DNA from: a bacterium
GTDB taxonomy: Bacteria; Patescibacteriota; Minisyncoccia; Phycocordibacterales; VMGT01
Direction of reading: 5' to 3'
DNA length: 64,000 nt
Assembly: GCA_030697645.1 (NCBI GenBank)
Contig: JAUYPI010000006.1
Span: 76,017 to 140,016, forward strand
Under the pieces are notes generated by a model. It was not told where the DNA came from. It worked only from the letters and a program-made list of their open reading frames with translations, and did no database searches. The first letter of the stretch is position 1; each line of letters begins with the position of its first letter. The position numbers and the translations under genes were made by a program. Positions 7,267 to 59,390 of the stretch are shown here, piece by piece.

Positions 7267-7407
7267 CTCCATGATTCTTGATTCATAATTCTTACTTCAT
7301 CCGTCATGTTCCTCAACCCATACGCAAAACTCATCCAAAACCCGTTTGATCTCGCCTCGCTCGAGAAAAAGCCGACACGGGACGGCTTCGGAAAGGGTAC
7401 GTGTTGA
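7267..7407 (+). repeat. Partial copy 1 of the tktB 5' region (native-looking leader plus 34 codons, then a stop)
   Basis: ctccatgattcttgattcataattcttacttcatccgtcATG..., encoding MFLNPYAKLIQNPFDLASLEKKPTRDGFGKGTC*. This matches the tkt C-subunit N-terminus NPFDLTALEKKPTRDGFGKG at 10365. Confidence 0.6.
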
Positions 7408-7437: not shown

Positions 7438-7696
7438 TATGGCTACCATAGACTATATCACAACCAATATTCGTCTGCCGAAGGAAGATTTAAAAGTATT
7501 GAAACAGGAGGCGTTCGCGAAAGAGCAAAGTGTGGGCGCGCTTCTTCGGTCTTTGGTTCGCGAACATTTTACGGGGCGTGCGGGGGTGCACACCAAACGC
7601 GCGCGTCGTTCCGTATGGGATCTTCCGAAGCGCGCACAGAAAACCGGTGCGCGAAATCTCGCATCCAACGTTGACCGCATCGTGTATGGAATATAA
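7438..7696 (+). CDS. Ribbon-helix-helix-type antitoxin (86 aa)
   Basis: MATIDYITTNIRLPKEDLKVLKQEAFAKEQSVGALLRSLV... Its 3' end overlaps the PIN gene by 11 nt. Confidence 0.55.
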
Positions 7697-8117: not shown

Positions 8118-8158
8118 TCGAGCCCTGAATCTTTGGCACGCCTAGAAATCTCCATGGT

Positions 8159-8887: not shown

Positions 8888-8891
8888 GCGC

Positions 8892-9050
8892 CTCCATGAT
8901 TCTTGATTCATAATTCTTACTTCATCCGTCATGTCCCTCAACCCCCAAGCAAAACTCGTCCCCAACCCTTTCGACATCGCCTCGCTCGAAAAGAAGCCCA
9001 CACGGGATGGGTTCGGGAAAGGCCTTGTTGAGGCCGGAGAGATAGAAATA
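8892..9050 (+). repeat. Partial copy 2 of the tktB 5' region (same leader; ATG at 8931; 37 native codons)
   Basis: Encodes MSLNPQAKLVPNPFDIASLEKKPTRDGFGKGLVEAGE then diverges. The leader is identical over about 45 nt to copy 1. Confidence 0.6.
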
Positions 9051-9067
9051 CATGATAAAATACGATT

Positions 9068-9436
9068 ATGCATACGATAAACCAAAAAATTAAAGAGATT
9101 ACGGACACAATCGTTAAAGAGTACCAACCGGAGAAAATTATTCTCTTTGGCTCGTATGCATGGGGCGAGCCGCATGAGTGGAGTGATGTTGACTTGCTTG
9201 TGGTAAAAGAAAGTACAAAGACGCAGCTCGAACGACGACGCGAATTGCGGCGCTTGCTTTTAGACGCAGACATGCCGCTTGATATTTTAGTGCACACAAA
9301 AAAGGAATTAGAGGACAACATCAACGAGAAACGCAATCTTTTTTTAGAAGACATAGTCCGTAATGGCCTTACACTTTACTCTGCTACGCAGGGCGAGATT
9401 GAGCTTACCCATACGCCCGCAACGCTTATTACATGA
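9068..9436 (+). CDS. Minimal nucleotidyltransferase (MNT) antitoxin-type protein
   Basis: GSYAWGEPHEWSDVDLLVV is the GSx9-13DxD nucleotidyltransferase signature. 122 aa. 4-nt ATGA overlap with the downstream HEPN gene. Confidence 0.75.
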   Translation: MHTINQKIKEITDTIVKEYQPEKIILFGSYAWGEPHEWSDVDLLVVKESTKTQLERRRELRRLLLDADMPLDILVHTKKELEDNINEKRNLFLEDIVRNGLTLYSATQGEIELTHTPATLIT

Positions 9437-10368
9437 ATGACAAAACGACACAATACGCTGGCGAGTGGTTTGAGAGAGGAGACGACGATCTCCAGGTTAT
9501 GGAAGTGCTCCTGAGGAACGAGAGTATCCCCAATGTTGTTTGTTTTCATGCGGAACAGGCGGCAGAAAAATACCTGAAAGGATTCCTGGCGCATCGTGAG
9601 CGACACGCCCGCAGGGTGCACGACTTGTCCTCACTATTGCGGGTATGCTGCGAGGTGGATGCGTCATTCAAAGCGCTACAACATGACGTAGAATTTCTTG
9701 GCGATTTGTACTTTTCGTCACGTTACCCGGACAATTACACCGTGTATCAAAAGAAGGACGCCGAGGAAGCACAGGCAGCTGCGATGCGTGTCAGGGCATT
9801 CGTCCTGGGGCGAGTAAAAGGAAACAGCGCAGATGGTGAGCCCGGCTTTGGCACCGTCGGTCTCATTGTTGGCGTTGTCGCGCTCGCGGTGTTCGTTGCT
9901 CTCGGCGCGGTCGTTTTGCGCAGCCGAGAGGGAGCGGAGGACGGCGTTGCCGCCTGCACCGAAGAAGCAAAACTCTGCCCCGACGGCACCACCGCCCTCC
10001 GCACCGGGCCGAACTGCGAGTTTGCGGAGTGTCCGCTGGTCTCCACACAAGAGGCCGGACATTTAAATGTTCAGACCGACCCCGAAATGGTTATGAGGGA
10101 GGTCGCACGACTGTTGCTTACTGCTGATAGTATTGATGCTGTGTTACCGTATTTTGACGATGGTTCTCAGTCGGTGCTCAAGCGGCGTTTTTCAGAGACA
10201 GCCCTCATGCGCTCGTTGGGTACGACTTATCAATCGGCAAAGCTTGTGGAACGAACCGATACTATTGCTACATTTGGAGTAACGGTTGCAGCGCAAGACA
10301 CGGTTTATCACGGCACGATAGTACTTTATAAGTTTGAGGATGGTAGCTGGAGGATAACTTCGCCTTGA
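9433..10368 (+). CDS. HEPN-domain protein fused to TM helix and Cys-motif extracytoplasmic domain (family member 3)
   Basis: N-terminal HEPN-like HAEQAAEKYLKGFLAHRERHARRVH (R-x5-H). Then TM GTVGLIVGVVALAVFVALGAVVL. Then CTEEAKLCPDGTTALRTGPNCEFAEC. The stop overlaps the tkt C-subunit start. Confidence 0.6.
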   Translation: MNDKTTQYAGEWFERGDDDLQVMEVLLRNESIPNVVCFHAEQAAEKYLKGFLAHRERHARRVHDLSSLLRVCCEVDASFKALQHDVEFLGDLYFSSRYPDNYTVYQKKDAEEAQAAAMRVRAFVLGRVKGNSADGEPGFGTVGLIVGVVALAVFVALGAVVLRSREGAEDGVAACTEEAKLCPDGTTALRTGPNCEFAECPLVSTQEAGHLNVQTDPEMVMREVARLLLTADSIDAVLPYFDDGSQSVLKRRFSETALMRSLGTTYQSAKLVERTDTIATFGVTVAAQDTVYHGTIVLYKFEDGSWRITSP

Positions 10369-11390
10369 ATTGTATGATTTACAGAGACGCGCATCTCGTC
10401 GAAAACCCTTTCGACCTCACCGCGCTCGAGAAAAAGCCGACGCGCGATGGGTTTGGAAAAGGCCTCGTTGAGGCTGGGGAGAAAGACCCCCGCGTGGTGG
10501 TGCTGTGCGCTGACCTTGCGGATTCCACGCGCGCGCAGTGGTTTCGGGATAAGTTTCCGGATCGCTACATCGAGCTTGGAGTTGCGGAGCAGAACATGGC
10601 GACGGTTGCAAGCGGGCTTGCGAACTACGGGAAGATTCCCTTCATGGCCTCATACGCGGCATTCAATCCGGGGCGCAACAATGAGCAAATCAGGACGACG
10701 ATCGCGCTCAATAATGTGCCGGTGAAAATCGTGGGCTCGCATGGCGGTATCAGCGTCGCGCAGGACGGTGCCACGCACCAGGCGCTCGAAGATGTGGGAC
10801 TTATGCGTATGCAGCCGAACATGGTGGTCATTGTGCCAGTGGATGCCGAAGAGGCGCGGAAGGCAACGTATGCTGCGGCGTTCAACGGGGCTCCGACATA
10901 TCTCCGCTACACGCGTGACAACCGGCCGGTGTTCACCACCGCCGACTCTCCGTTTGAGATAGGGAGGGCGAATTTGCTCTGGGACGGTAATCCCGAGGGA
11001 GACCTCGACGTCGCTGTCATCGGCTGCTCCCCGGTCCTGCACAATGCGCTCATGGCGGTTAAAGAGCTCGCCGAAGAGCGCGGACTTAAGATTGCGGTGC
11101 TGAATTGCCACACAATAAAACCGCTCGACCGCGATGCGATTGTCGGCATTGCAAAGCGAGCCGGAGCCGTTGTCACCGCCGAGGAACACCAAATCGCTGG
11201 CGGCATGGGCTCGGCAATCGCAGAACTACTTGTCCAAGAACATCCAGTACCGATTGAATTCGTCGGCGTCCACGATCGCTTCGGCCAGTCAGGAACCGTC
11301 GAGGAACTTTTCAAGGAATACGGCCTCGATGCGTCGCACATCAAGGAGGCGATCGTGCGGGTGCATGGACGAAAACAAGCCCTTAACTAA
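10365..11390 (+). CDS. Transketolase, C-terminal (pyrimidine-binding/C-terminal domain) subunit
   Basis: NPFDLTALEKKPTRDGFGKG..GSHGGISVAQDGATHQALEDVGLMR, plus a C-terminal domain. The first ~13 codons differ from the two upstream fragment copies. The tracked start is TTG at 10365; the true start may be the ATG at 10374. Confidence 0.85.
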   Translation: MNCMIYRDAHLVENPFDLTALEKKPTRDGFGKGLVEAGEKDPRVVVLCADLADSTRAQWFRDKFPDRYIELGVAEQNMATVASGLANYGKIPFMASYAAFNPGRNNEQIRTTIALNNVPVKIVGSHGGISVAQDGATHQALEDVGLMRMQPNMVVIVPVDAEEARKATYAAAFNGAPTYLRYTRDNRPVFTTADSPFEIGRANLLWDGNPEGDLDVAVIGCSPVLHNALMAVKELAEERGLKIAVLNCHTIKPLDRDAIVGIAKRAGAVVTAEEHQIAGGMGSAIAELLVQEHPVPIEFVGVHDRFGQSGTVEELFKEYGLDASHIKEAIVRVHGRKQALN

Positions 11391-11526
11391 TTACTAATCA
11401 ATATCTAAACGATCTGAATTATGGGGCTAGAATTATGAATCATGGGGGTTTTGAATGGTGAAAATTCAAACAAGTATACGCGACCATAATTCATGATTCC
11501 TACTTCTTAATTCACCGTGACCAATC

Positions 11527-20130: not shown

Positions 20131-20334
20131 ACCCGCGATGCGTTGACAGAATTATCAGAACGACCAAACGCCTCCCCGTGCGATATCGGGGAGGTGTTTG
20201 GGGGGTTTCTGTGCAACAATTTTTGCTAGAATCAGTTCAATTGTCGCTATGAGCAAAGATGTCGGGCGACCCCCGCCGTGCGAAAGCTCCAAGCTTCAAA
20301 AAACAAGCTCCAGTTCATGTAAATTCCAAGCTCC

Positions 20335-20470
20335 AACCAACAATTTCAAAACAAACTTCAAATTCCAATGCATCAAATCTCAAACACGTACGTCGTGTTT
20401 GGAAATTGGATTTTGAATATTGAGATTTGTTTGGAAATTGTTGGTTGGAAATTGGAGCTTCGTCGTGGTG
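20335..20470. repeat. Intergenic k-mer palindromic element (ttggaaatt family), long imperfect inverted repeat centred on cacgtacgtcgtg
   Basis: caaacttcaaattccaatgcatcaaatctcaaacacg | cgtgtttggaaattggattttgaatattgagatttgtttggaaattg. Shares an exact 21-mer with the element at 59359-59379 (reverse complement). Confidence 0.7.
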
Positions 20471-20523
20471 TGACATTGGGTGTGTGTCTCCGTCGGCAAT
20501 TTCGTTATTCAAAGTCTGTAAGT

Positions 20524-22531: not shown

Positions 22532-23275
22532 ATGCAACCGGACGTCGAGGACAGTTATTTGGTGAAAACGGTCGGTTTTGAAGGACCGCTCGACCTCCTG
22601 CTTACTTTAATCGAGGATCGAAAACTTTCGATCAGCGAGGTTGCCTTGGCTTCCGTGGCGGATGCATACACGGCACATGTACGGGCCCTAGAGCGTGTAC
22701 CGGTGGGCGAGACCGCGCAGTTCGTGCTCACCGCTGCAACACTCCTCCTCATAAAGTCGCGCTCGCTCTTGCCGACGCTCGATTTCACGAGCGAGGAAGA
22801 AGGCGACATTCGCGATCTCGAAGAGCGGCTGCGGCGGCTCGCTGTCCTGCGCGAGTCGGCGCGAGAGCTCGCTCGTTTGGCGGCAGGTCCGGCGCTCTAT
22901 GCGCGTCGTGCTCGCGTTGAGCCGATTCCGATTTTTGCGCCCGGAAGTCGGCTCACCATGGCGGTTATTGTCGAGACTGTCCAGGGCATCGTGAGTTCGG
23001 TGTCGTCCGAGGCGTCTCGTATCCCGGAGACTCTTGTACGCCGGACGGTACACCTAGAAGAAGTGGTGCGCACGCTCGCCGAGCGGATCGAGCGTGCGTT
23101 TGCAGTGAGTTTTTCCGACATCAGAGCGGCATCACGGGACCGGCTTGATCTTATAGTAAGCTTCCTCGCGTTGCTTGAACTCGTGAGGCGCGGCGGGGTA
23201 GCTGCCGCGCAGGAAGCGCCGTTTGCGGACATTACCATTGAAGGCGATCACGTGGGCGTGCCAAGGTACGACTAA
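22532..23275 (+). CDS. scpA: Segregation and condensation protein A
   Basis: FEGPLDLLLTLIEDRKLSISEVALASVADAY. About 247 aa. Confidence 0.7.
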   Translation: MQPDVEDSYLVKTVGFEGPLDLLLTLIEDRKLSISEVALASVADAYTAHVRALERVPVGETAQFVLTAATLLLIKSRSLLPTLDFTSEEEGDIRDLEERLRRLAVLRESARELARLAAGPALYARRARVEPIPIFAPGSRLTMAVIVETVQGIVSSVSSEASRIPETLVRRTVHLEEVVRTLAERIERAFAVSFSDIRAASRDRLDLIVSFLALLELVRRGGVAAAQEAPFADITIEGDHVGVPRYD

Positions 23276-23280
23276 CGAAT

Positions 23281-23317
23281 TTCAAATTTTCAAGTGACCA
23301 ATTTCCAACAGGGCGTC
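23281..23317. repeat. Short copy of the ttggaaatt-family element immediately after the scpA stop
   Basis: cgaatttcaaattttcaagtgaccaatttccaacagg matches 55957-55993 at 31/37. Confidence 0.6.
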
Positions 23318-24774: not shown

Positions 24775-26076
24775 ATGCACTTCATTGTCGACTTTCATAC
24801 GCACTCGCACTACTCGCGGGCGACGTCGCCCGAGATGAATGTCTCGGGGCTCACGCGCTGGGCGCAGCTGAAGGGCACGACGCTGATCGGCACCGGCGAC
24901 TTCACACATCCGCTCTGGTTTGCCGAGATGCGCGAGACGCTTGAGCCGGCAGAGAGCGGGCTTTTCAAGCTCTCCAGCGCAGAGGAGCGCGAAATCGCGC
25001 GTGAGGTGCCCGAGCGCTGCCGCGCCGCAATGCGCTTTCTCCTCACCGTCGAGGTGAGTACGATCTATAAGCGCGCCGGGCGTGTGCGCAAGGTCCACAG
25101 TCTGATTCTCGCGCCGTCGTTTAAGGTCGCAGCGAAGGTTAATGACACACTGCGGCGCATTGGCAACATTTCATCGGACGGCAGGCCGATCCTCGGTCTC
25201 GATACCGAGGAGCTCCTTAAAATCGTGCTTGATGCGTCCGAGGAGTGCATGCTGATCCCTGCCCACGCATGGACGCCGCACTTTGCCGTGTTCGGATCGG
25301 CGTCGGGCTTTGATTCCCTTGAGGAGGCGTTTGGCGAGAGCGCGAAATATATCCATGCGATTGAGACGGGGCTCAGCTCTGACCCCGCGATGAACTGGCG
25401 GCTCTCCGCGCTCGACAGGCTTGCGCTCGTTTCAAACTCCGACGCGCATTCGCCGCGCAAGCTCGGTCGCGAGGCGAATGTTTTTAATACCAACCTTTCC
25501 TATGCCGCGATCACCGGGGCGCTCAAGCGCAATGACCCAGAGGCTTTCGAGAGCACGATCGAGTTTTATCCGGAGGAGGGGAAGTACCACCTCGACGGTC
25601 ACAGGCTTTGCAAGACGCGCCTCAAGCCCGAGGAAACCCGCGCGCGAGGCGGGCTTTGTCCCGCGTGTGGAAAGCCCGTAACTGTCGGCGTTATGCATCG
25701 CGTTGCTTCACTTGCAGATCGTGGGCCAGGCGCGCGAGTGGCCGGCGGGCGGCCATTCCGGAGCATCGTGCCGCTTCCCGAGATCATCGCCGAGGCGCTC
25801 GAAGTCGGGCCGCAGAGCAAGCGCGTGGACGAGCGATACTTTGCGCTCCTTGCTGCGCTCGGAAACGAATTTTATATTCTCCTCGATGCGCCGATTGAGG
25901 ATATCGCGCGCGCTTCGACCTCGCTCATCGCGGAGGCAGTCCGCCGCATGAGGGCGGGTGAGGTACATATCGCCCCAGGCTACGATGGGGAGTACGGAAC
26001 CGTCAAAATTTTCGACGATGGAGAACGTATAGCGCTCGCCACGAGAGCGGCGAGCGCGCAGACGAAGCTGTTTTGA
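24775..26076 (+). CDS. PHP-domain phosphoesterase with C-terminal CxxC...CxxC zinc ribbon
   Basis: VDFHTHSHYSRATSPE (PHP motif I), further His/Asp motifs, LCKTRLKPEETRARGGLCPACGK. Confidence 0.55.
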   Translation: MHFIVDFHTHSHYSRATSPEMNVSGLTRWAQLKGTTLIGTGDFTHPLWFAEMRETLEPAESGLFKLSSAEEREIAREVPERCRAAMRFLLTVEVSTIYKRAGRVRKVHSLILAPSFKVAAKVNDTLRRIGNISSDGRPILGLDTEELLKIVLDASEECMLIPAHAWTPHFAVFGSASGFDSLEEAFGESAKYIHAIETGLSSDPAMNWRLSALDRLALVSNSDAHSPRKLGREANVFNTNLSYAAITGALKRNDPEAFESTIEFYPEEGKYHLDGHRLCKTRLKPEETRARGGLCPACGKPVTVGVMHRVASLADRGPGARVAGGRPFRSIVPLPEIIAEALEVGPQSKRVDERYFALLAALGNEFYILLDAPIEDIARASTSLIAEAVRRMRAGEVHIAPGYDGEYGTVKIFDDGERIALATRAASAQTKLF

Positions 26077-26202
26077 CGAGGAGTTTGCCGGTGGGGGGGG
26101 GATTGACTCCAGTAAGCTCCACTTACTCACTGCCCGTGAACTCAGCCGTGCGTTTGAACGTGCGATTTTTTGACTCGCAGAAATTTTTCTCGTCTGGTGT
26201 CG

Positions 26203-27930
26203 TCAAAACAGCCTCGCCTGCGGCGTGGTTGTTCTCTTTTGCGGCGGACGGAGGAAGATCCGCTCGCAAAGATTCTCGGGAAGGGACGCAAGAAAACGCG
26301 AGGGGGCGGGGAAGTACGTTTTTCCAAAAAGCGTTCGTTTTGCTGCCTGAGAAAGATACAGTCGCTCTTTCGCGCGTGTCATCGCGACGTAGAGGAGGCG
26401 GCGTTCTTCGGCGATGCGTTCGTCATTGCGCACTTCGTCCGGCCGCAGGTAGGGAAACAGCCCCTCCTCAACTCCAGCGACGAACACGACCGGAAATTCA
26501 AGGCCCTTTGCGGCGTGCGCGCTGAGGAGCATCACGGCCTCGCCCGACACTAGGGTATCTTCTGGCCGTGCGAGCGTCGCGCGCGCAAGGAGCGCGCGGC
26601 GCGCCTCGGCTAGCTCGAGGTGGTCGAACTGCGTTGCGATACCAACAAGTTCGAGAATGCGGTCAGAGAGTGTGTTGCGGCGTGGTGTCACTCTCCGGTC
26701 ATGCTGTTTAGCATTGCTTTGCGTCGCGATGGCATTTACAGCTTGCGAGAGCGTCGAAAACTTTAGGTCGTTTGCTGCGATAGGGATTTCCGCGTTTGCA
26801 TGGTAGTCGGCGTCGTGATCGGGAAGATCGAGCGTCTCGAGCTTTTCGAGCACATTGCGGACCTCGGGCTGCTCGAAAAACCCGACACCGCCGATCGTAC
26901 GGAAGGGAATACCGACGTGGTTAAGCGCGCTCTCAAACTCGCGGGCGAGCGCGTGCAGGCGATAGATCACCGCGAAATCACCGAACGAGAAATTACCTGC
27001 GCCAGCGCGCAAAAGGTCGGCGCCCCCAATCTCCCGCTCAATCGTGCGGACGATCCAGAGCGCCTCGGCTCGGTCGGAGGCTGCATGTATGATGTGCGGC
27101 CGTGTGCTTTTTTGTTCCTGCTGTGCGACATCCGATGTTGCACAAGACCCGATGCACGAGCCGGCCACTGCGAGAATCGAGGGAGTAGAACGGTAATTTC
27201 GGATGAGGCGCAGCACGCGGGCGTCAGGATAGCGCTCGGTGAACGAGGAGAAATGCCGAGGATCCGCGGCGCGAAACGAGTAGATCGACTGGTTTGGATC
27301 GCCGATGACGCAGAGGTTGCGGTGCCCCGCGGCGAGGAGATCGAGAAGCGTGCTCTGGAGCGCGTTTGCGTCTTGGTACTCGTCGGCGAGTATAAAATTG
27401 AAGCGACTGCGGTAGTGCGCGAGCACGTCCTCGTGCGTGCGGAGGAGCTCGAGCGCGCGCGAGAGGAGTGCGTCGAAGTCGAGCGCTGTGTCGTTTGTGC
27501 CCGCCCGCTTTCCGCGCGGTTTCTCACCGACGCGAAAGTTAGGAGGCACGCCAACAAGCTCTCCGTACTCGCGGAGCATCGTATGTGCGAGGGCGTGGAA
27601 GGTGGCGACTACGGGAGAGCGGAAGGTGGCGAGTGCTTGCCCGTCGAAGCCGGAGCTAAGGCGGGGAGAGTGGATTGGCGCTTGATGCGTGAGCGTGGTC
27701 GGTGCAACGGCCGCTCGAATGCGCTCCCGTATCTCGTCCACCGCCTTGTTCGTGAAAGTAATGGCGAGGATCTGCTCCGGCGGCACGCCGCGCTCACATA
27801 TCAAGCGGCTCACGCGCTCGACGAGAACGCGCGTCTTGCCGCTTCCGGGGCCAGCAACAATCACCACCGGACCATCAAGCGCGGATACGGCCGTGTCTTG
27901 ATCCGCGTCAAGTTCATCAGATAACAGCAT
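26203..27930 (-). CDS. ATP-dependent DNA helicase, UvrD/PcrA family
   Basis: Walker A AGPGSGKTRVLVERV. Motif II DEYQDAN. Motif VI-like VAMTRAKERLYLS. 575 aa. Confidence 0.8.
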   Translation of the reverse strand: MLLSDELDADQDTAVSALDGPVVIVAGPGSGKTRVLVERVSRLICERGVPPEQILAITFTNKAVDEIRERIRAAVAPTTLTHQAPIHSPRLSSGFDGQALATFRSPVVATFHALAHTMLREYGELVGVPPNFRVGEKPRGKRAGTNDTALDFDALLSRALELLRTHEDVLAHYRSRFNFILADEYQDANALQSTLLDLLAAGHRNLCVIGDPNQSIYSFRAADPRHFSSFTERYPDARVLRLIRNYRSTPSILAVAGSCIGSCATSDVAQQEQKSTRPHIIHAASDRAEALWIVRTIEREIGGADLLRAGAGNFSFGDFAVIYRLHALAREFESALNHVGIPFRTIGGVGFFEQPEVRNVLEKLETLDLPDHDADYHANAEIPIAANDLKFSTLSQAVNAIATQSNAKQHDRRVTPRRNTLSDRILELVGIATQFDHLELAEARRALLARATLARPEDTLVSGEAVMLLSAHAAKGLEFPVVFVAGVEEGLFPYLRPDEVRNDERIAEERRLLYVAMTRAKERLYLSQAAKRTLFGKTYFPAPSRFLASLPENLCERIFLRPPQKRTTTPQARLF

Positions 27931-28840: not shown

Positions 28841-29350
28841 TTAAGCCGGGTTATTGCTACGGCGTCTTTTCCGCGTCACATATGTTGGTTGGCGTTCGTG
28901 AATCCCGCTGCGGCGGTTCATGTCTCGTGCCAGCGCAAACATAAGGCACGCCAACTGGTCCATGTAGAATGCCACGATGGTGGGGTTGTCGAGATAGCCC
29001 ACAGTTTTCCGCTCAACCGCCCGTGCCTGAGTTCGCACGCAATGGAGCACGCATGAGCCCGTCGTGCCTTCGGGAATGAGAAAGTGGTCAAGCGGTTCTA
29101 ACGTAGACTCAATACCATACGTTTCCTTTTGCAAGTCGAACACGCGTTCTTTCTGCAGAGCCGGTGTGCTATTGGGGCACACCACTCCTGCTTGCAAGAC
29201 AAATAGATCATTTTGGATAGCAGTGAAGAGTTTTACATCTTTTCTCCTTTTCATCAACGACTTTGCCAGGCCGACCAACGAATTCAGGTGGTCGAGTTCT
29301 CCCAAAAGCTCGTTCTTTTCTTCGTCCAGATTGAGGTTGGTCACCGGCAC
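28841..29350 (-). CDS. ATP:cob(I)alamin adenosyltransferase, PduO type (Cob_adeno_trans family)
   Basis: DLFVLQAGV...FLIPEGTTGSCVLHCVRTQARAVER matches the PduO-type FILPGG...LH.ART..RRAER signature. Confidence 0.55.
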   Translation of the reverse strand: MPVTNLNLDEEKNELLGELDHLNSLVGLAKSLMKRRKDVKLFTAIQNDLFVLQAGVVCPNSTPALQKERVFDLQKETYGIESTLEPLDHFLIPEGTTGSCVLHCVRTQARAVERKTVGYLDNPTIVAFYMDQLACLMFALARDMNRRSGIHERQPTYVTRKRRRSNNPA

Positions 29351-29404: not shown

Positions 29405-29618
29405 TTTGTAATAAAAATCAACAACAGAATAAATATCTGTCCCGTATGGGTTAGGTGAGCACCTTGTCGGATGGCAGGTTGCTGGAGCGTCATCGGGCCT
29501 ATTCCCTCGGCTCACTCTTGATACTTATTCTGTTATAAATGTACCTGATACAAATGTACCAAAACGTATATCGCGCCGGCAATGTTTAGTAGTTTTAGGA
29601 AACAATAAAATCAAACTG

Positions 29619-31989: not shown

Positions 31990-32016
31990 GATGAGGCCCC
32001 ATCCATAAATAATTTC

Positions 32017-32222
32017 GGATCACACGCAAAAGCACTGGTAGTCCGTCATTACGAGCGAACGTAGCCGAAGCCGCGATGCGCGGGCGCGGCGGGAAGCAAC
32101 CCAGAGTATAGTCACCGTATGTCAGAGTCGAGAGAATTGTAGGTCATCCCCCTGGATTGCTTCGCTCCGCTCGCAAAGACCTACGCCGCCGGCCTCCTTA
32201 CCGGTGCTTTTGCGTGTGATCC
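32017..32222. mobile_element. MITE-like element: perfect 19-bp terminal inverted repeats, flanked by 8-bp direct repeat ATAATTTC
   Basis: TIR ggatcacacgcaaaagcac (32017-32035) and gtgcttttgcgtgtgatcc (32204-32222). ATAATTTC at 32009-32016 and 32223-32230. The interior holds further imperfect palindromes. No transposase. Confidence 0.55.
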
Positions 32223-32327
32223 ATAATTTCCCCATCTCGCACTCACTGCACGCCCTTATGCGGCTCGTGCTCAATCGCGAAATCCCTTTCGTTCCCGATC
32301 GGGTCTCGGATTCGCTCATTCCGCGTC

Positions 32328-37554: not shown

Positions 37555-37770
37555 GTATACTACACTTTGATAATAGACCTCTCACAACACAAAACACAAA
37601 CAAAGCACAAATCCAAAAGCCACAAAACACAAACACGTAGTGCAACCGTTTTGGTTTTGGAATTTGTGTTTTGATGTTTTGTTTGTGCTTTGTAATTTTG
37701 GCTTTGGGCTTTCGTTTGTTTTGTTTCGAATTTCGCTATTCAAATTTGTGCTTTTTACAAGCTAACAGCC
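37555..37770. repeat. Intergenic k-mer palindromic element (caaaacacaaa / tttgtgttttg family)
   Basis: caaaacacaaacaaagcacaaatccaaaagccacaaaacacaaacacg...cgttttggttttggaatttgtgttttgatgttttgtttgtgctttg: arms built from the same k-mers in opposite orientation. Confidence 0.65.
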
Positions 37771-37775: not shown

Positions 37776-39347
37776 CTACGAGCTCGCATGGTGCCCCAGC
37801 GCCGCGCGGATTTTGCGCTTGGCGAGGCCGGTTTTCACAAAGGCGAGCCACTTCCGCGTCGGCCGGGCGAATTCTCGGGTCTCGATCTCGACGATGTCGC
37901 CGTTGTGAAGTGCGGTGTCAAGTGAGACAAGCTTACCATTTACTTTGACGCCCGAGGCGTGGTCTCCGATTTCAGAGTGAATTGCATAGGCGAAGTCAAG
38001 GGGCCCGGCGCCAAGCGGCAGATCAACCACGTCGCCCTGCGGCGTGAAGACGAACACGCGGTGACTGAAGAAATCGGCTCGGAGGTGCTCGAGAAATTCT
38101 TTCGGGTCGCTGACGTCGGCTTGCGCCTCCGCGAGCTCGCGGAGCCACTCAGGGGTCGCGGGGCTCGCTACGGCGAGCGACGGTTCGTTCGCGCGCGCGT
38201 TTTGGAACCAGTAGCGGTATGAGAGGCGCTGTCCGATCCACGCGAGATGCGTGAGAAGCGAGCGGCTGTCGCCGCCTTCCTTGTAGAGAAAGTGCGAGGC
38301 GATCCCGTATTCCGCTCTCCGATGCATCTCCTCGGTGCGGATTTGAATCTCGACAACGCCGCCGCCCCCTGTGAAGATCGTGGTGTGGAGTGAGCGATAG
38401 CCGTTCGGCTTCGGGAACGCGATGTAGTCTTTGATGCGCCCCGGGAGCGGCCGCCATGTTTTGTGGACAATCCCGAGCGCGCGGTAGCAGTCCTCAACCG
38501 TGGGTACGATGATCCGGAGCGCTGAGATGTCGTACACTTTGTTGATATCCATGTCTTTGCGCTCGAGCTTGCGAAAGAGGGAATAGAGCCCCTTCAGCCG
38601 GAATGACGTCTGTGCCTCGCGGATGCCATCGAGCGCGAGATTTTTTTGGAGCGTCCGATGCACCCCTCTGAGGTGTGCTGCGGTTTCGGCGTCTTTTTCC
38701 TTGAGCAGCGCCGTTACGTGCTCGTACTCTTTCGGGTAGACGAAGGGAAAGGCGAGGTCCTCGAGGTCGCGGTTCAGCGCCCGCATGCCGAGGCGGTAAG
38801 CGAGCGGCGCGTAGATCTCGAGCGTCTCCTCGGCGATGCGTCGGCGTTTGTGTGCCGGCACATGCTCGAGCGTTTGCATGTTGTGCAGGCGATCCGCGAA
38901 CTTGATGATGAGGACGCGGATATCGCGCGCGACCGCGACAAAGAGCTTGCGCAGGCTCTCGACGTGGCGCGTCAGGCCGCGGTATTTGAGGGTCCCGAGC
39001 TTCGTGACCCCTTCAACGAGCGAGAGTATCTCGTCGCCAAATTCCGCGCGTACATCCTCAGCGGTCGCCGGCGTGTCCTCGATCACGTCGTGGAGGAGCC
39101 CCGCGGCGATCGTCTTCGCGCCCATGCCGAACTCGGCGAGTGTCTTTGCCACGGCAAAGACATGCGTGAAGTACGGCTCGCCAGAGAAACGCAGATGTCC
39201 CTCATGCGAGCGCTCCGCAAACCCGTAGGCCTTCTCAATGAGCGCGACGTCGTCTTTCGACGGTTCGCGTATGAGGGAAGTTATGTCCTTGACAGATGGC
39301 ATAGGGGCAGCACACTCATGTAACATTTGACATGTAACATTTGACAC
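37776..39347 (-). CDS. rel: Bifunctional (p)ppGpp synthetase/hydrolase (RelA/SpoT family)
   Basis: HD hydrolase motif GLLHDVIEDT. Synthetase domain RIKDYIAFPKPNGYRSLHT. TGS region. 523 aa (no ACT domain). Confidence 0.85.
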   Translation of the reverse strand: MSNVTCQMLHECAAPMPSVKDITSLIREPSKDDVALIEKAYGFAERSHEGHLRFSGEPYFTHVFAVAKTLAEFGMGAKTIAAGLLHDVIEDTPATAEDVRAEFGDEILSLVEGVTKLGTLKYRGLTRHVESLRKLFVAVARDIRVLIIKFADRLHNMQTLEHVPAHKRRRIAEETLEIYAPLAYRLGMRALNRDLEDLAFPFVYPKEYEHVTALLKEKDAETAAHLRGVHRTLQKNLALDGIREAQTSFRLKGLYSLFRKLERKDMDINKVYDISALRIIVPTVEDCYRALGIVHKTWRPLPGRIKDYIAFPKPNGYRSLHTTIFTGGGGVVEIQIRTEEMHRRAEYGIASHFLYKEGGDSRSLLTHLAWIGQRLSYRYWFQNARANEPSLAVASPATPEWLRELAEAQADVSDPKEFLEHLRADFFSHRVFVFTPQGDVVDLPLGAGPLDFAYAIHSEIGDHASGVKVNGKLVSLDTALHNGDIVEIETREFARPTRKWLAFVKTGLAKRKIRAALGHHASS

Positions 39348-39400
39348 GACGACGGGCGTTCTAGGTCAAATGTCAACGGTCAATTGTCAAATGTTCGACC
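39300..39400. repeat. Intergenic k-mer palindromic element (catgtaacatttgaca family)
   Basis: catgtaacatttgacatgtaacatttgacacgacgacgggcg...ggtcaaatgtcaacggtcaattgtcaaatgttcg. Overlaps the rel start codon. Confidence 0.55.
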
Positions 39401-39419: not shown

Positions 39420-41705
39420 TTATTGCTCGTTGCCTGTTGCTCGTCCGCCCGGCCGGTGATTTGCACACTCTTTATTACTGCAGCGCTCAGGAATGGTTTT
39501 CGTCCCCTCCATCATGAGTGAGCCGCAGAGGGGGCAGATGCGGCCGGTTGGTTTTGCTTTGATTGCATGTTTGCACGCGGGGTAGTTTGAACAGCCGTAG
39601 AAGAGTCCGAATTTCCCGCGCCGCTCCGCCATCTCGCCCTTGCCGCATTTTGGACAAGGAACGCCCGTGCTTGTCGCTTGCTGCGTGCTGCTTGCCGCCT
39701 TTTTAATATACTTGCACTTCGGATACTTGCCGCACCCAACAAACTTTCCAAATTTTCCATCGCGTTCGACAAGCGCGCCGCCGCACTCGGGGCAGCGCTC
39801 GCCGGTCTCCTGGGGCGGCTTCACCTCCTCGCCGTGCTCCGACCGCGCGCCTTCGCATTCGGGAAACCTGCTACAGCTCATGAACGTGCCGGAGCGGCTG
39901 AGCTTCATCACCATGGCGCTCCCGCAGGTCGGGCAGCGAAATTGCTTTGGTGCGGGACCGAGATCCGTGAGCCGCGGGACGTTCTGTCTTGCCGCGACGT
40001 CCTTGCTAAACGGCGTGTAGAAATCGGCAAGCGTCTTGGCATACTCGCGCGCTCCGCGCGCGATATCGTCGAGTTCATCCTCCATCTTCGAGGTGAAGGT
40101 ATCGCTTATGTAGGAGGCAAAATTTTTCTCGAGGAACGTGCTTACGACATCGCCCATCGCGGTGGGCTTCAGTGACCGGCCTTCTTTCTCGACGTATTCG
40201 CGATCCTGGATCGTCTTGATGATGGAGGCGTATGTCGAAGGCCTGCCGATGCCGCGTTTTTCAAGTTCCTTCACGAGCCCCGCTTCGCTGTAGCGTGGCG
40301 GGGGCTGCGTTTGTTTGCCCTCGCTCTCGAGCGAGCGGAGAGTGAGTGGTTCCTCGCGAGCGACTTTCGGAAGCTCGATGTCCTCGCCGCGCGAGGCCGG
40401 GTCCGCGGCGAGCCAGCCGTCAAATTTTGTGCGGGAGCCAATGGCAGAAAATGCGGGAACGTCTTTTGCTTCTATGGGTACTGCGACGCGCGCCGTAATT
40501 TTCGTCTTGATGAGCTCGGCCGCGGCCATCTGGCTTGCGAGCGTACGTGCGCGGATCAGCGCGTAGAGGCGTTTTTGCTCTTCGGTAGCGCCTGCGGATG
40601 CGCGCGTGATGTCCGTCGGACGGATCGCCTCGTGCGCTTCCTGCGCGCTTTTGCTCGTGGTTTTATACTGTCGCAGCGTGACATACCGCTCGCCGAATTT
40701 CTTGGTGACAGCTGCGCCGATTGAGCTCCGGGCTTCCTCTGCGAGCGTCGTCGAATCGGTGCGCATGTAGGTGATGTGCCCCTGCTCATAGAGCTGCTGC
40801 GCAGTGCGCATGGTGCGCGCCGGGGAGAAGCCGAGCCGCGAGCTTGCGGCCTGCTGGAGGGTCGAGGTCGTGAACGGAGAGCGCGGGGCCCGAGACGTTT
40901 CCGTCTCGAGTACCTCGGCGACAATCCAGCTGCCGCTGCGGCCGACTTTGAGTATTCGCTCCGCCTCCTCGCGGGTCTTTGGCTCCTCGACGCACACGAG
41001 CGTCATGCCACTCCCTTTTTTTGTCGCACAGAGCGCGGTGAGCACCCAGTAGTTCTCCGGCACGAACGCGCGGATCTCTCGCTCGCGCTCGACGAGAATA
41101 CGCAGGGCAGGGGACTGCACTCGGCCTGCCGAGAGCCCGTAGCGGAGCTTCTTCCAGAGTAGGCCCGAGAGGTCGTAGCCGACGAGGCGGTCGAGGACTC
41201 TGCGCGCCTCCTGCGCCCTGACGAGCCGCTCGTCAATATCTCGCGGATGCGCGAGCGCTTCTTTCACTGCGCGCTCCGTAATTTCGTGGAAGACCACACG
41301 TTTAACGTTTGGAATTTGGAATTTGGAATTTGGAATTTGTTTGGAGCTTGTTTTTTGGAATTTGGAATTTCCGAGGCCGAGCGCCTCGGCGACGTGCCAC
41401 GCGATCGCCTCGCCCTCTCGATCCGGGTCGGTCGCAAGCAGCACTTCGTCCGCTTTTTTTGCTGCAGCTTTGAGATCGGCGATAACTTTTGTTTTCTCCG
41501 GGATGATTTCGTAGTGCGGCGCGAATCCGTGCGCAATGTCCACCGCGTTTTCATTCTTCTTCGGCAGATCACGCACATGGCCCACCGAGGCCTTGACGCT
41601 GTAGCCCGGCCCCAGGTATTTGCTGATCGTTTTCGATTTTGCAGGAGATTCGACGATGACGAGTTTCATACGAGCAGTATGCAGCGTGCAGCAGGCAGTA
41701 AGCAA
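39420..41705 (-). CDS. topA: DNA topoisomerase I with C-terminal zinc ribbons; contains an in-frame repeat-derived insertion
   Basis: Toprim MKLVIVESPAKSKTISKYLG. Active-site region. C-terminal CPTCGS/CPECGG/CPKCGKG/CPLCGS zinc fingers. Confidence 0.85.
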   Translation of the reverse strand: MLTACCTLHTARMKLVIVESPAKSKTISKYLGPGYSVKASVGHVRDLPKKNENAVDIAHGFAPHYEIIPEKTKVIADLKAAAKKADEVLLATDPDREGEAIAWHVAEALGLGNSKFQKTSSKQIPNSKFQIPNVKRVVFHEITERAVKEALAHPRDIDERLVRAQEARRVLDRLVGYDLSGLLWKKLRYGLSAGRVQSPALRILVEREREIRAFVPENYWVLTALCATKKGSGMTLVCVEEPKTREEAERILKVGRSGSWIVAEVLETETSRAPRSPFTTSTLQQAASSRLGFSPARTMRTAQQLYEQGHITYMRTDSTTLAEEARSSIGAAVTKKFGERYVTLRQYKTTSKSAQEAHEAIRPTDITRASAGATEEQKRLYALIRARTLASQMAAAELIKTKITARVAVPIEAKDVPAFSAIGSRTKFDGWLAADPASRGEDIELPKVAREEPLTLRSLESEGKQTQPPPRYSEAGLVKELEKRGIGRPSTYASIIKTIQDREYVEKEGRSLKPTAMGDVVSTFLEKNFASYISDTFTSKMEDELDDIARGAREYAKTLADFYTPFSKDVAARQNVPRLTDLGPAPKQFRCPTCGSAMVMKLSRSGTFMSCSRFPECEGARSEHGEEVKPPQETGERCPECGGALVERDGKFGKFVGCGKYPKCKYIKKAASSTQQATSTGVPCPKCGKGEMAERRGKFGLFYGCSNYPACKHAIKAKPTGRICPLCGSLMMEGTKTIPERCSNKECANHRPGGRATGNEQ
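41306..41372. repeat. ttggaattt-family k-mer repeat inserted in frame inside topA
   Basis: gtttggaatttggaatttggaatttggaatttgtttggagcttgttttttggaatttggaatttcc, coding GNSKFQKTSSKQIPNSKFQIPNVK on the minus strand. Confidence 0.65.
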
Positions 41706-41841
41706 GCGTCGTGTGCTTGCTGCATGCTGCTAATCGCTTGCTGCTTGTAACAATTACTACAGTTCCTTCGCCTTGGCAAATAAATAAAGTCTCCGACCAC
41801 AGACGTTTGTGATCGGAGACGCATATACGGAAGTCGCTGGT

Positions 41842-43133: not shown

Positions 43134-43134
43134 T

Positions 43135-43265
43135 TACGAATGTCAAAGTTCAAAACGCAAGCAAAGTCAAAAGTCAAAACGCAAAAGTCAAAACCGCAGC
43201 CTCAAAGTCAAAAGTTTGAAAGGTTTTAGGCTGTGGTTTTGAGCTTTGACTTTTGCGTTTTGACT
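43135..43265. repeat. Intergenic k-mer palindromic element (gtcaaaagtcaaaacgcaaa family) forming a long hairpin
   Basis: gtcaaaacgcaaaagtcaaaaccgcagcctcaaag...aggctgtggttttgagctttgacttttgcgttttgac. Confidence 0.65.
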
Positions 43266-43277
43266 TGGCTTGTAGCA

Positions 43278-45224: not shown

Positions 45225-45370
45225 CACCCGCATTAATTTTCAATTTTGCAATTTTCAATGAATTTTCAATGTGTCAATGACTCAATGGCGGACGACGTCG
45301 TGTTTGAAAATTGTGTCATTGCAAAATTGATTGAAAATTGAAAATTGAACATTGGAAATTTCTGACTCAA
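45225..45370. repeat. Intergenic k-mer palindromic element (caaaattgaaaattg family), copy flanking mraY upstream
   Basis: Shares an exact 24-mer cattgcaaaattgattgaaaattg (45317-45340) and the core cgtgtttgaaaattg with the copy at 46486-46650. Confidence 0.7.
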
Positions 45371-45414: not shown

Positions 45415-46485
45415 ATGATAATAAATGTAGCTAAAGTCTTCCTTCCCGCCACCATTGCTTTCGCGATCGGTGTCGTGTTCGCGCCGCTCCTGGCACACTA
45501 CTTATACCGCTTTCGCATGTGGAAGAAGAGTGCGAAAGCGGTAGCGCTCGACGGCCGTGGTACGCCGATCTTTCACTCGCTCCACCGCGATAGGGAAACA
45601 TCGACGCCGAAACTTGGCGGCATCGTGATCTGGGGAAGCACGCTTGTGACAGTACTTCTCATCAGAATTGCCGAAGACGTCATTCCCTCAGCGCTCACGG
45701 CAAAACTTGAGTTCCTCAGTCGTTCGCAGACGTGGCTGCCACTCGTAACACTCCTCGTGGGGGCAACCATCGGTTTTATAGACGACATGCTTGATGTGCG
45801 GGGAGGCGGAAAGTACCTCGCTGGTGGACTTTCGCTCCGGATGCGGCTCGGTATCGTTGCTTTGACCGGACTCATCGGTGGGTGGTGGTTTTTCACGAAA
45901 CTTGGAGTCTCAAGCATCATAGTGCCGTTTGCCGGTGAGGTGATACTCGGCTGGCTCCTCGTGCCGCTCTTCATCATCGTTCTGCTCGCGATCTACTCAG
46001 GCGGCGTCATTGATGGTATTGATGGCCTTGCCGGCGGGGTGTTTGCGGCGATATTCGGCGCGTATGGTGGCATCGCGTTTTTTCAAAACCAGATTGACCT
46101 CGCGGCATTCTCGGCGGTCGTCGTTGGCGGCATTCTTGCTTTTCTCTGGTTTAACATTCCACCTGCTCGATTCTATATGTCCGAGACAGGCACCATGGGG
46201 CTTACCATGACGCTCGCGGTCGTCGCATTTCTCACCAAGGCCGTCGTCGTCTTGCCCATAATCGCTTTTCCGCTGCTTGCCACAACCGCCTCGGACGTGA
46301 TCCAGCTCGCTTCAAAGCGCTTCCGCGGAGGGAGAAAGGTGTTCCTTATCGCGCCAGTGCACCACCACTTCGAAGCCCTCGGCTGGCCGCCGTACAAAGT
46401 GACGATGCGTTACTGGGTGATTTCGGTCATCTGCGCGCTCCTTGGCATGATCGTGGCCCTCGTGGGGAACCAGGTCACGCTTTGA
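45415..46485 (+). CDS. mraY: Phospho-N-acetylmuramoyl-pentapeptide transferase
   Basis: Polytopic membrane protein with a DD-containing cytoplasmic loop IDDMLDVRGG and HHHFE. Confidence 0.85.
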   Translation: MIINVAKVFLPATIAFAIGVVFAPLLAHYLYRFRMWKKSAKAVALDGRGTPIFHSLHRDRETSTPKLGGIVIWGSTLVTVLLIRIAEDVIPSALTAKLEFLSRSQTWLPLVTLLVGATIGFIDDMLDVRGGGKYLAGGLSLRMRLGIVALTGLIGGWWFFTKLGVSSIIVPFAGEVILGWLLVPLFIIVLLAIYSGGVIDGIDGLAGGVFAAIFGAYGGIAFFQNQIDLAAFSAVVVGGILAFLWFNIPPARFYMSETGTMGLTMTLAVVAFLTKAVVVLPIIAFPLLATTASDVIQLASKRFRGGRKVFLIAPVHHHFEALGWPPYKVTMRYWVISVICALLGMIVALVGNQVTL

Positions 46486-46650
46486 ATTTTCAATTTTCAA
46501 TGCTCAATTTTCAATAAATTTTCAATCCGCCAGCTGGCGGACCCAATGGCTCAATGACGAATCACGGACGAACGTCAGCGTGTTTGAAAATTGATTCATT
46601 GCAAAATTGATTGAAAATTGGAAAATTGATAATTGAAAATTCAGACTCGA
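46486..46650. repeat. Intergenic k-mer palindromic element (caaaattgaaaattg family), copy flanking mraY downstream
   Basis: 24-mer cattgcaaaattgattgaaaattg at 46597-46620. Arms gaattttcaattttcaatgctcaattttcaat / attgaaaattggaaaattgataattgaaaattc. Confidence 0.7.
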
Positions 46651-47814: not shown

Positions 47815-47890
47815 AGGATAGAAAGTGGAGAGTGGATTTTTTACTCCCACACTCTACATTCTACTTTCCACTCTCTACTTTCCACTTTCC
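47815..47890. repeat. Intergenic k-mer palindromic element (ggaaagtgg / ccactttcc family)
   Basis: agaaagtggagagtggatttttt actcccacactctacattctactttccactctctactttccactttcc. Confidence 0.55.
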
Positions 47891-47894
47891 AACC

Positions 47895-49039: not shown

Positions 49040-49130
49040 GATAACGACGGGTTTTGGAATTTTACTTGTTGTTTTACGTTGTTGTTTTGCGCTTTTCGTT
49101 TTGCGTTTTGCATTTTCTGATATAGAGTCA
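49040..49130. repeat. k-mer low-complexity tract (gttttgcg/ttgttttac units) upstream of tRNA-Glu
   Basis: ttttacttgttgttttacgttgttgttttgcgcttttcgttttgcgttttgc. Confidence 0.4.
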
Positions 49131-54559: not shown

Positions 54560-55951
<1,392 letters not shown>

Positions 55952-55956
55952 CGAAT

Positions 55957-56064
55957 TTCCAATTTCCAAGTGGTCAATTTCCAAGCAAATTTCAAATGCT
56001 CAAATCTCAAATTAAACTTCGTACTTCGGATTTTGTACATCGGATGTCAGCGTCGGCAATTTTT
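55957..56064. repeat. ttggaaatt-family element after the atpD stop, plus copy 1 of a 24-bp repeat (acatcggatgtcagcgtcggcaatt)
   Basis: cgaatttccaatttccaagtggtcaatttccaagcaaatttcaaatgctcaaatctcaaatt. 56041-56064 matches 62938-62961. Confidence 0.6.
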
Positions 56065-59305: not shown

Positions 59306-59319
59306 ACGCGCATAACGAA

Positions 59320-59390
59320 TTTCCAAATTCCAAAAAACCCGTCTCCAAACACGACGTGCGTGTTTGAGATTTGATGCATTTTTCGCTTTA
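59320..59390. repeat. ttggaaatt-family element after the M23 peptidase stop; contains the exact 21-mer reverse-complement match to 20368-20388
   Basis: cgaatttccaaattccaaaaaacccgtctccaaacacgacgtgcgtgtttgagatttgatgcat. 59359-59379 is the reverse complement of atgcatcaaatctcaaacacg. Confidence 0.7.

Follow-up and report, generated by a model that had tools for sequence, protein, structure and literature searches.

The window analyzed here is a stretch of 64 kb (64,000 nucleotides) which, as judged from its sequence, is ordinary chromosome of a Paceibacteria-like bacterium of the candidate phyla radiation (CPR), and our subject is a set of dispersed palindromic elements lying between, and in one case inside, its genes. 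Pfam and homology searches identified rnhB, parB, scpA, dnaE, relA, topA, an mraY-ftsW-murG cluster, atpG, atpD, gltX and an M23 peptidase gene. The TopA protein is 100% identical to NCBI MDZ4284752.1, and the next-best named matches, at about 65% identity, come from Paceibacterota, Kaiserbacteria, Liptonbacteria and Sungbacteria. Because the window has a G+C content of about 55%, AT-rich low-complexity stretches are conspicuous in it. A preliminary description had listed five of these as a family of intergenic elements of the "ttggaaatt type". All five are present as described and the family is real, but it is only one flavor of a far wider superfamily with a 7-nt (heptad) period, and the list was incomplete, as many more loci in the window show this period. 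The archetype of the superfamily is an AT-rich, imperfect palindrome of about 130-230 nt made up of a leader (TAACGAAWTT), a G-poor arm, a GC-rich tip of the form CAAACACG-N5-CGTGTTTG, a C-poor arm and the inverted leader. The five loci and their parts are as follows.

20278..20507: full-length element of the TTCCAAA/TTTGGAA flavor, between the DUF7450 gene (ends 20130) and rnhB (starts 20524).
20278-20317: left outer module of that element, homologous to 59317-59348 and to the topA insert.
20324-20457: its main imperfect hairpin, with G-poor arm, tip hairpin and C-poor arm.
20381-20401: its tip hairpin, CAAACACG-TACGT-CGTGTTTG.
20496-20507: its right end, GCAATTTCGTTA, an inverted leader.
23273..23317, plus strand: truncated one-arm copy with leader and G-poor arm; the TAA at 23273-23275 is the scpA stop codon.
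41304..41372, minus strand: in-frame array of 23 codons in topA, GNSKFQKTSSKQIPNSKFQIPNV, between the Toprim block ending in AEALGL and KRVVFHEIT.
55949..56062, plus strand: one-arm copy with leader, G-poor arm, degenerate core CAAATTTCAAATGCTCAAATCTCAAA and right-end motif CGTCGGCAATTT; the TAA at 55949-55951 is the atpD stop codon, and a NUDIX gene starts at 56079.
59313..59385, plus strand: leader, short G-poor arm and inverted family core, with a tip hairpin at 59346-59366; it lies 8 nt past the M23 peptidase stop codon.

The exact 21-mer first reported at 20368-20388, with its reverse complement at 59359-59379, is indeed shared, and it is the centre of a 48-nt inverted match of 90% (20367-20414 against 59333-59380). 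Other modules also recur from locus to locus: 20359-20384 resembles 55986-56011 (81%), the right-end motif CGTCGGCAATTT of the 55949 copy at 56051 is found again at 20491-20502, and the topA array, which holds four perfect TTTGGAA units on the plus strand, matches two of the intergenic copies in inverted orientation (41350-41371 against 59317-59338, 95%; 41342-41373 against 20281-20312, 81%). The copy at 23273 has its closest relative within the window at 55949. The preliminary description had proposed its own test, namely whether anything is shared beyond the 21-mer and a general low-complexity likeness. The five loci were compared pairwise by Smith-Waterman alignment, with dinucleotide shuffles as the control: all ten pairs scored above the mean of the shuffles, and for 8 of the 10 the score was never equalled in 300 shuffles. 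More than the 21-mer is thus shared, and by that test the family is real.

The form ascribed to the five copies needs more correction than their relatedness. The arrangement of direct repeats followed by their reverse complement applies to 20324-20457, which folds at -56.8 kcal/mol (z = -7.9), but RNA folding of each copy did not find it at the other four: 59313-59395 forms an 8-bp tip hairpin only (z = -2.3), and there is no significant fold at 55949 (z = 0.2), 23273 (z = 0.8) or 41300-41375 (z = -0.75). Four loci are intergenic as described, while 41306-41372 lies in frame inside topA. The starting motif TAACGAATTTC[CA]AA was found at 23273, 55949 and 59313 as reported. These three copies had been said to begin right after a stop codon; at 23273 and 55949 the TAA of the leader is itself the stop codon of scpA and atpD, respectively, and at 59313 the TAA is separated from the peptidase stop by the 8 nt mentioned above, and the "CAAGTG" of the motif first reported is missing.

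What a complete copy looks like is also seen outside the window (L-numbers denote comparison loci or contigs of relatives or from metagenomes). A metagenome scan with the leader retrieved contig L135/L136, whose gene content is unrelated. On it lies a full-length homologue that agrees with the window copies in leader and core and runs from the leader through the G-poor arm and CAAATCTCAAACACG-loop-CGTGTTTGGAAATTGG to the C-poor arm. The 55949 copy is 94% identical to it over 48 nt and the 23273 copy about 89% over 36 nt. It follows from this archetype that 55949 and 23273 are left halves, and that 59313 is a right half on the other strand, cut just past the core.

The period of 7 nt was seen by three routes, namely a scan for AT-rich stretches with hardly any G or hardly any C, a lag analysis and Tandem Repeats Finder. 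In the output of the last, about half of the rows had a period of 7, 14 or 21, and in the lag analysis 7 was the best lag in 17 of 19 element arms, with a lag-7 value that was equalled by at most 47 of 2000 shuffles for each arm. The 64 kb contain at least 15 heptad blocks; the elements are 80-230 nt long, AT-rich and multi-copy, and none has a credible open reading frame (ORF). They come in unit flavors (TTCCAAA, AACACAA, AAAGTCA, AATTTTC, TTCCACT, GTTTTGC and GGTCAAA) that are all variations on YCAA plus three bases, and degenerate 7-nt units on this common theme make up the G-poor arm of the archetype. Further elements and blocks in the central part of the window are listed here.

37570..37754: AACACAA/TTGTGTT-flavor hairpin (z = -3.5) between relA and dnaE, both on the minus strand; its sense-strand start TAGCGAAATTCGAAAC is leader-like.
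39317..39391: heptamer block of CATGTAA and GGTCAAA units spanning the topA-relA junction; its 14-mer part (39317-39346) lies under the first relA ORF start (39347), and the block is wholly intergenic if relA has 508 aa, as annotated in a second assembly.
41714..41747: heptamer block of TGCTTGC units shortly before the start codon of topA (41669); relative L124 has a TTCCACT-flavor hairpin at this position instead.
43134..43273: AAAGTCA/TGACTTT-flavor hairpin (z = -7.2) directly 3' of an ABC-ATPase stop codon, with the leader-like start TTACGAATGTCAAAG.
45229..45366: AATTTTC/GAAAATT-flavor hairpin (z = -4.2) between the S11 D-Ala-D-Ala carboxypeptidase gene and mraY; its centre GACGACGTCGTGTTTGAAAATTG has ACGTCGTGTTTGRAAATTG in common with the 20390 core.
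46483..46647: second AATTTTC-flavor copy, between mraY and ftsW, with the mraY TGA stop codon inside its first unit; the rest of the spacer is a second small hairpin ending 6 nt before the ftsW ATG (46708).
47817..47894: TTCCACT-flavor hairpin filling the ftsW-murG spacer, flush with the murG ATG (47895).
49049..49116, plus strand: one-arm block of the GTTTTGC/GTTTTAC flavor between murG and tRNA-Glu.

The flavors are related to one another through more than their period. The leader TAACGAATTTCC recurs as TTACGAATGTC at 43134 and as TAGCGAAATTCG at 37740 on the minus strand, and the ACGTCGTGTTTGRAAATTG centre is common to the TTCCAAA and AATTTTC flavors. Terminal inverted repeats are present: TAACGAATTTCC is answered by GCAATTTCGTTA at the right end of 20278-20507, an element in L145 ends in ...AATTCGTTA, and the AATTTTC flavor has GAATTTTCAAT and ATTGAAAATTC. 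A profile built from three AATTTTC copies matched TTTGGAA-type elements over their full length (20325-20455, E = 1.6e-7; L136, E = 5e-12) and also picked up weaker members in L124 and in loci from Falkowbacteria and Saccharibacteria. The full elements fold into long imperfect hairpins (z = -3.5 to -7.9) with AT-rich stems of 40-60 bp. Since the sense and antisense strands fold equally and contain few G-U pairs, the symmetry of the hairpins is Watson-Crick and not tied to one transcript. Seven copies, taken from five contigs (window, L145, L136, L035 and L124), were aligned with 28 stem pairs; 85.7% of the cells were paired, against 24-63% in slid controls, and 13 cells had changed on both sides, a number equalled by none of 500 shuffles. 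The T/C difference between AATTTTC and AATTTCC, for example, is mirrored in the opposite arm.

Nearly all of the elements occupy spacers between co-directional genes. A period of 7 was found in 11 of the 44 window spacers of at least 40 nt, and these were distributed as 11 of 33 co-directional spacers and 0 of 11 convergent or divergent ones. Elements occur at every junction of S11-mraY-ftsW-murG, and the listed elements fill about 15% of the intergenic DNA of the window (10.3 kb of spacers). In the more distant L149 (FtsW 61% identical) the series scpA-scpB-S11-mraY-ftsW-murG-gltX-M23 is packed, with spacers of 1-75 nt and no heptad element, whereas the same genes in the window are separated by elements of 80-220 nt. 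Moreover, the scpA...M23 cluster is split into three pieces in the window, with an element at each break (23273, 49049 and 59313). Closer relatives (FtsW identity 78% for L145/L146, 74% for L147 and 83% for L148) carry hairpin elements of other flavors in the mraY-ftsW and ftsW-murG spacers. The ftsW-murG element of L145 is of the flavor found on both sides of mraY in the window (identity 85% over 107 nt and 92% over 63 nt, with flanking genes at only 76-79% DNA identity) and reaches the start codon of murG, ending ...AATTCGTTA|TG. In L148 the arm that precedes ftsW is identical to window 43234-43255 (22/22). The contig L136 (greA, clpB, infC-rpmI) shares no genes with the window in tblastx, so its copies are non-orthologous to those of the window; they nevertheless match 55949 (the 94% given above), 43134 (86% over 92 nt) and 49049 (two elements, 92-96% in parts), and they are inverted relative to the window copies. 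In the relative L123 the N-gaps of the scaffold fall exactly where the spacers are, and it was of little use in these comparisons. Taken together, the elements form a dispersed, homologous superfamily of heptad-periodic palindromes that turns over between relatives, includes one-arm and translated copies and is, at these junctions, specific to a CPR lineage. The earlier proposal of a dispersed family of the repetitive extragenic palindromic (REP)/bacterial interspersed mosaic element type or the miniature inverted-repeat transposable element (MITE) type agrees with this, given the unique cores and ends shared in both orientations at non-orthologous sites and the covarying arms.

Two hairpins of 96.5% identity and AGCGCAA flavor were also noted in L136 (9496-9600 and 9801-9890), where they bracket a tiny rpmI-like ORF immediately 3' of infC, within infC-rpmI-rplT, an operon that is universally conserved. 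Independent assemblies of the same populations were 99.9% identical (1 mismatch over 13.7 kb, 13 over 9.1 kb) and showed no indel, so the arrays are not hypervariable contingency loci, and no polymorphism of the elements within a species was seen between these near-identical assemblies. Several short-read contigs of this species and its closest relatives (L001, L002, L148 and L150) end in or next to heptamer elements, corresponding to window positions 20378, 20313 and about 7320 and, for L148, to the two contig ends. Look-ups of exact protein matches, meant to extend the window, led only to short contigs of the same species ending at repeats. In the five closest relatives (59-83% identical) the contig with ftsW is 1.3-3.5 kb long, while those of many more distant homologues are 19-640 kb.

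The stability of the folds, their position right at stop codons and the preservation of pairing by compensatory changes could be taken to mean that the elements are functional RNA hairpins selected at gene ends, as terminators or attenuators (the role suggested in the preliminary description), RNase III sites or mRNA stabilisers; MITE and REP hairpins elsewhere do affect mRNA stability or termination (PMC10969869). A scan of three regions for consensus terminators and promoters, however, gave no match of either kind at the elements and scored no stem-plus-T-tract at any of them, including the five loci, some of which had been credited with such features, and we rejected intrinsic termination for stems that are AT-rich, 40-60 bp long, without a U-tract and equally foldable on both strands. 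No asymmetry between RNA strands (G-U against C-A) was detected, which gives no sign of a strand-specific RNA. The elements also lie inside conserved operons that are tight and element-free in L149, three of the five loci listed at first have no hairpin, and one copy is translated. The terminator or attenuator role is therefore unsupported, and we regard selected RNA hairpins in general as improbable. A different small structure in the window looks like the real terminator type. It is a 37-nt hairpin, TTTGCAATAAC(A/T)ATGCGATCGCTTGCTTATTGCA, present twice (60509-60545 and 62973-63009, 95% identical) and followed at the second copy by a run of seven T (62973-63016); a similar hairpin with a T-run lies 3' of relA in L123 (6995-7040). 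These 37-nt hairpins are probably the real intrinsic terminators of this lineage and a small dispersed family of their own. A search of Rfam 15 at gathering scores returned nothing at the elements, the only matches in the window being four tRNAs and a SAM riboswitch, and parS sites, tried as a candidate near parB, gave no match at up to 3 mismatches.

It could also be argued that the arrays are binding sites for a protein or the ribosome, such as G-poor, unstructured, CAA-rich leaders serving as translation enhancers of the S1 type, with the 7-nt spacing set by the binder. The YCAA-plus-three unit is present in all flavors, several elements end 1-10 nt before a start codon with no Shine-Dalgarno motif visible, and the same hypothesis has been put forward for TAACTGA repeats in Beggiatoaceae (PMC4679880). 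Yet in full elements the arm that adjoins the start codon is taken up by pairing, the orientation to transcription is variable (the L136 copies being inverted), copies also occur after the last gene before convergent neighbors (23273), and no candidate binder was identified, which makes this explanation if anything a shade less probable than the previous one. Arrays of guide RNAs, either CRISPR (clustered regularly interspaced short palindromic repeats)-like or of the TIGR-Tas (tandem interspaced guide RNA) type, come to mind for a different reason, as TIGR systems occur in CPR/Parcubacteria and some have palindromic stem-loop arrays (PMC12045711). This idea has practically no chance and was rejected on the architecture and the absent partner genes: the copies are single and scattered among housekeeping genes without any repeat-spacer regularity, in keeping with the earlier remark that they are not CRISPR-like, a domain scan detected no Tas, Nop or Cas domain in the 57 ORFs of the window, and searches of viral contigs gave 0 matches for the core and 0 for the leader. 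The core TCTCAAACACG-N5-CGTGTTTGGA also had 0 matches in the genome collection, whose representative genomes do not include the source species.

One copy, the array in topA, is translated. Its 23 residues stand where most homologues have KKP, after the Toprim block and before RVVFxEIT, and alignments to solved TopA structures break exactly at this point, where 14 of 60 TopA homologues have low-complexity inserts. The insert in L124 consists of four perfect GGTCAAA units, and that in L123 is based on AAATTCG and contains small internal palindromes. The TTTGGAA repeat is stop-free in all six frames and reads FGIWNLE or FQIPNSK on opposite strands. In the genome collection (TTTGGAA)3 is present at no fewer than 120 loci from about ten phyla. 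Among the matches listed, 25 loci were treated as CPR (23 named CPR and 2 titled only "bacterium"), and the repeat lies in long open frames at 18 of these 25 loci against 27 of the 95 others, mostly read as NSKFQIP. According to Pfam the host proteins include RNA polymerase beta' (RpoC), a P-type ATPase, a class I aminoacyl-tRNA synthetase, PPDK, an integrase and a Mur ligase. In other phyla the unit occurs in direct arrays and in hairpins beside start codons, drifting from unit to unit.

An alternative is an explanation without any movement, in which each spacer, and the loop of topA, grew its own array in place by slippage from A/C-rich seeds, palindromes came from fold-back template switching and the similarity between copies is convergent. 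Heptamers are an over-represented class of long simple-sequence repeats for which slippage has been proposed (Mrazek 2007, as cited in PMC4679880 and PMC4692102). Perfect arrays are found in topA of the window and of L124 and, with 4 x GTTGGATA, at 13786 in the window, related species differ in flavor at the same spacer or codon, and the gradual drift of the arrays in other phyla and the wide occurrence of (TTTGGAA)3 also count in its favor. On the other hand, unique, asymmetric and non-repetitive cores and ends are shared across loci and genomes (AATGCATCAAATCTCAAACACG...CGTGTTTGGA; GTGTTTGAAAATTGATTCATTGCAAAATTGATTGAAAATT at 92%; the leader TAACGAATTTCC), the order of imperfect units is kept at 85-96% at non-orthologous sites, and length variation is absent between near-identical populations. 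Expansion in place is a serious rival and probably contributes, given the perfect arrays and the differing topA flavors, but it leaves the shared unique cores at non-orthologous sites unexplained, and as the explanation of the elements we consider it unlikely.

With moderate confidence we prefer to regard the elements as selfish or near-neutral repeat DNA, built on heptanucleotide arrays and similar to REPINs (REP doublets forming hairpins), MITEs or Rickettsia palindromic elements (RPEs), with the five loci representing one flavor. Elements could reach new sites if mobilised in trans, or through ectopic gene conversion for which the ends and core they have in common serve as anchors, and the arms would grow and drift by 7-nt replication slippage. 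The palindromy may be kept either as a consequence of the hairpin being the form that is copied, or if only a hairpin is tolerated at a translationally coupled cistron junction, where it would fold away in the mRNA and keep the start codon of the second cistron near the stop codon of the first. Hairpins are flush with stop and start codons at mraY-ftsW and ftsW-murG, but not at 20324 or 37570. The copies at 23273, 55949 and 59313 would be decayed one-arm copies, and the topA array would be a copy or a seeded array tolerated in a surface loop, which we infer could survive because the TTCCAAA unit lacks a stop codon in all six frames. On RNA the elements may incidentally act as sites of 3'-end protection or processing, and not as canonical terminators.

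Several points weigh against this interpretation. No site empty in one member of a species and filled in another was found, and movement of an element was never observed. No target-site duplication was seen at the flanks of three aligned copies, a small sample with fuzzy boundaries, and no transposase, HUH/RAYT (REP-associated tyrosine transposase) or other mobilising gene was found in the 57 window ORFs or in L136 (nine ORFs scanned for transposase). The different flavors at the same spacer or topA codon in related species could reflect turnover of arrays in place and not repeated insertion, and with (TTTGGAA)n in many unrelated phyla the similarity of the copies could partly be due to convergent slippage. 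Common ancestry of the copies can make their covariation look stronger than it is. What we say about the elements at the level of RNA is inferred throughout.

Each of the known systems named above matches the elements in part. A REP unit is an imperfect palindrome of only 20-40 nt that carries the conserved tetranucleotide GTAG at its 5' end. The elements in the window have neither the tetranucleotide nor such a unit, their ends being TAACGAAWTT and their sole conserved short palindrome the tip CAAACACG-N5-CGTGTTTG; they also differ from REPINs in the degenerate heptanucleotide arrays of the arms, the CPR host and the translated copy, and no RAYT gene was seen in the 64-kb window. Shared with REPINs (PMC3116915) are two inverted halves forming a long hairpin of about 100-200 nt, a mostly extragenic location in both orientations, several sequence groups per genome, singlet (one-half) copies that decay, and the lack of a target-site duplication. 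Bacterial MITEs (Correia, Nezha, ERIC, RUP/BOX/SPRITE; PMC10969869) are likewise small (under about 500 bp), AT-rich and non-coding, with inverted ends and a stable structure; they form families with truncated members and an intergenic preference, and can supply stop codons or fuse in frame with genes. As in a MITE family, the same flavor is found in different spacers of the window, L145, L148 and L136, with none in L149. Here, however, the palindrome extends over the whole element, where a MITE has a unique body flanked by short inverted ends. An internal 7-nt period marks the arms, and we found no target-site duplication and, in the window and L136, no parent insertion sequence with matching ends. 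RPEs are palindromic repeats of about 100-150 nt in a reduced genome, and by analogy the topA array would share their in-frame insertion into conserved housekeeping proteins without destroying them. They belong to an unrelated lineage and are not expected to be related in sequence, while the coding copies here are one-armed and encode a low-complexity peptide of the NSKFQIP type, not the conserved RPE peptide, and most window copies are intergenic.

Heptanucleotide repeats have been described as TAACTGA in Beggiatoaceae, cyanobacteria and Bacteroidetes (PMC4679880) and as GGGAATC in Xanthomonas and GGGGAYT in Nostoc (PMC4692102). Together with the cyanobacterial STRR (short tandemly repeated repetitive) sequences they share with the present elements the 7-nt unit, an intergenic location often just before starts or after stops, a sporadic distribution among lineages, occasional inverted array pairs and the suspicion of slippage. 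They are mostly plain direct arrays of one unit, whereas the units here are degenerate and paired into long hairpins around a conserved core and ends, in dispersed families. The case in this window joins heptanucleotide arrays with hairpin-forming, dispersed or in-frame palindromic repeats in a CPR lineage; a literature search for heptamer or MITE-like repeats in CPR found no relevant description.

CPR genomes are regarded as streamlined and repeat-poor. The heptad class has widened operon junctions that measure 1-7 nt in a relative, is present where the ancestral scpA...M23 cluster is split, contributes in-frame inserts to topoisomerase I and, in other CPR genomes, to RpoC, aminoacyl-tRNA synthetases and further proteins, and coincides with breaks in short-read assemblies; heptad repeats appear to fragment CPR metagenome assemblies. 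Recognition of the class would help the assembly and annotation of metagenome-assembled genomes, for example by lowering the number of split genes, "hypothetical" ORFs and wrongly placed start codons. It also offers a tractable case for the origin and spread of heptanucleotide repeats, a long-noted and unexplained feature of bacteria, and natural examples of tolerated loop insertions in essential enzymes. A wider possibility, which we put forward as doubtful, is that such heptad-periodic palindromes form a class, not described until now, that exists throughout the CPR/Patescibacteria phylum, where they would re-open operon junctions, mark synteny breaks, fragment assemblies and seed NSKFQIP-type loops in essential proteins (TopA, RpoC, aminoacyl-tRNA synthetases), being tolerated or used by way of a hairpin that closes the distance between stop and start. 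If this were true, the evolution of genomes and proteins in streamlined episymbionts would have a major driver that has been overlooked.

Three further features involve heptamers at the left end of the window.

7270..7307, plus strand: block of the TGATTCT type.
8895-8932: identical repeat of that block.
11415..11516: period-7 hairpin, GAATTAT/ATAATTC-like, after the gene for the C-terminal half of transketolase.

Transketolase is encoded in two halves, an N-terminal one (4966-5967) and a Pyr/C-terminal one (10365-11390), about 4.4 kb apart. Between them are a DUF5674 gene and three paralogous ORFs (6657-7262 and 8159-8887, neither with a Pfam match, and 9433-10368, with a HEPN domain). The first ~90 nt of the C-half gene (10395-10486) recur in diverged form at two more places, 7330-7421 and 8955-9046, each time preceded by the same 34-nt heptamer block (7274-7307 = 8899-8932). 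The region 4966-11390 looks like the result of serial cassette insertion with target duplication.

Four other intergenic structures of 150-220 nt (3680-3831, 26057-26222, 32011-32228 and 60271-60460) each consist of a 23-30-nt inverted repeat around a GC-rich interior and fold with their flanks at -66 to -125 kcal/mol; they showed no mutual similarity, Rfam match or period of 7. The tRNA genes are at 16792, 18394, 27986 (minus strand) and 49138, and the SAM riboswitch (RF00162, 54 bits) is at 29430-29527 on the minus strand, upstream of the gene at 28841-29350 for a protein with a Cob_adeno_trans domain. In the ATP synthase operon a 476-aa ORF without a Pfam match (53129-54559) lies between atpG (52201-53121) and atpD (54584-55951), and the NUDIX gene 3' of atpD occupies the place where atpC is expected. 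The sigma-70 family protein encoded at 1489-3654 is unusually long (721 aa), with regions 2-4 in its C-terminal third and an extra weak region-4-like match near residue 135.

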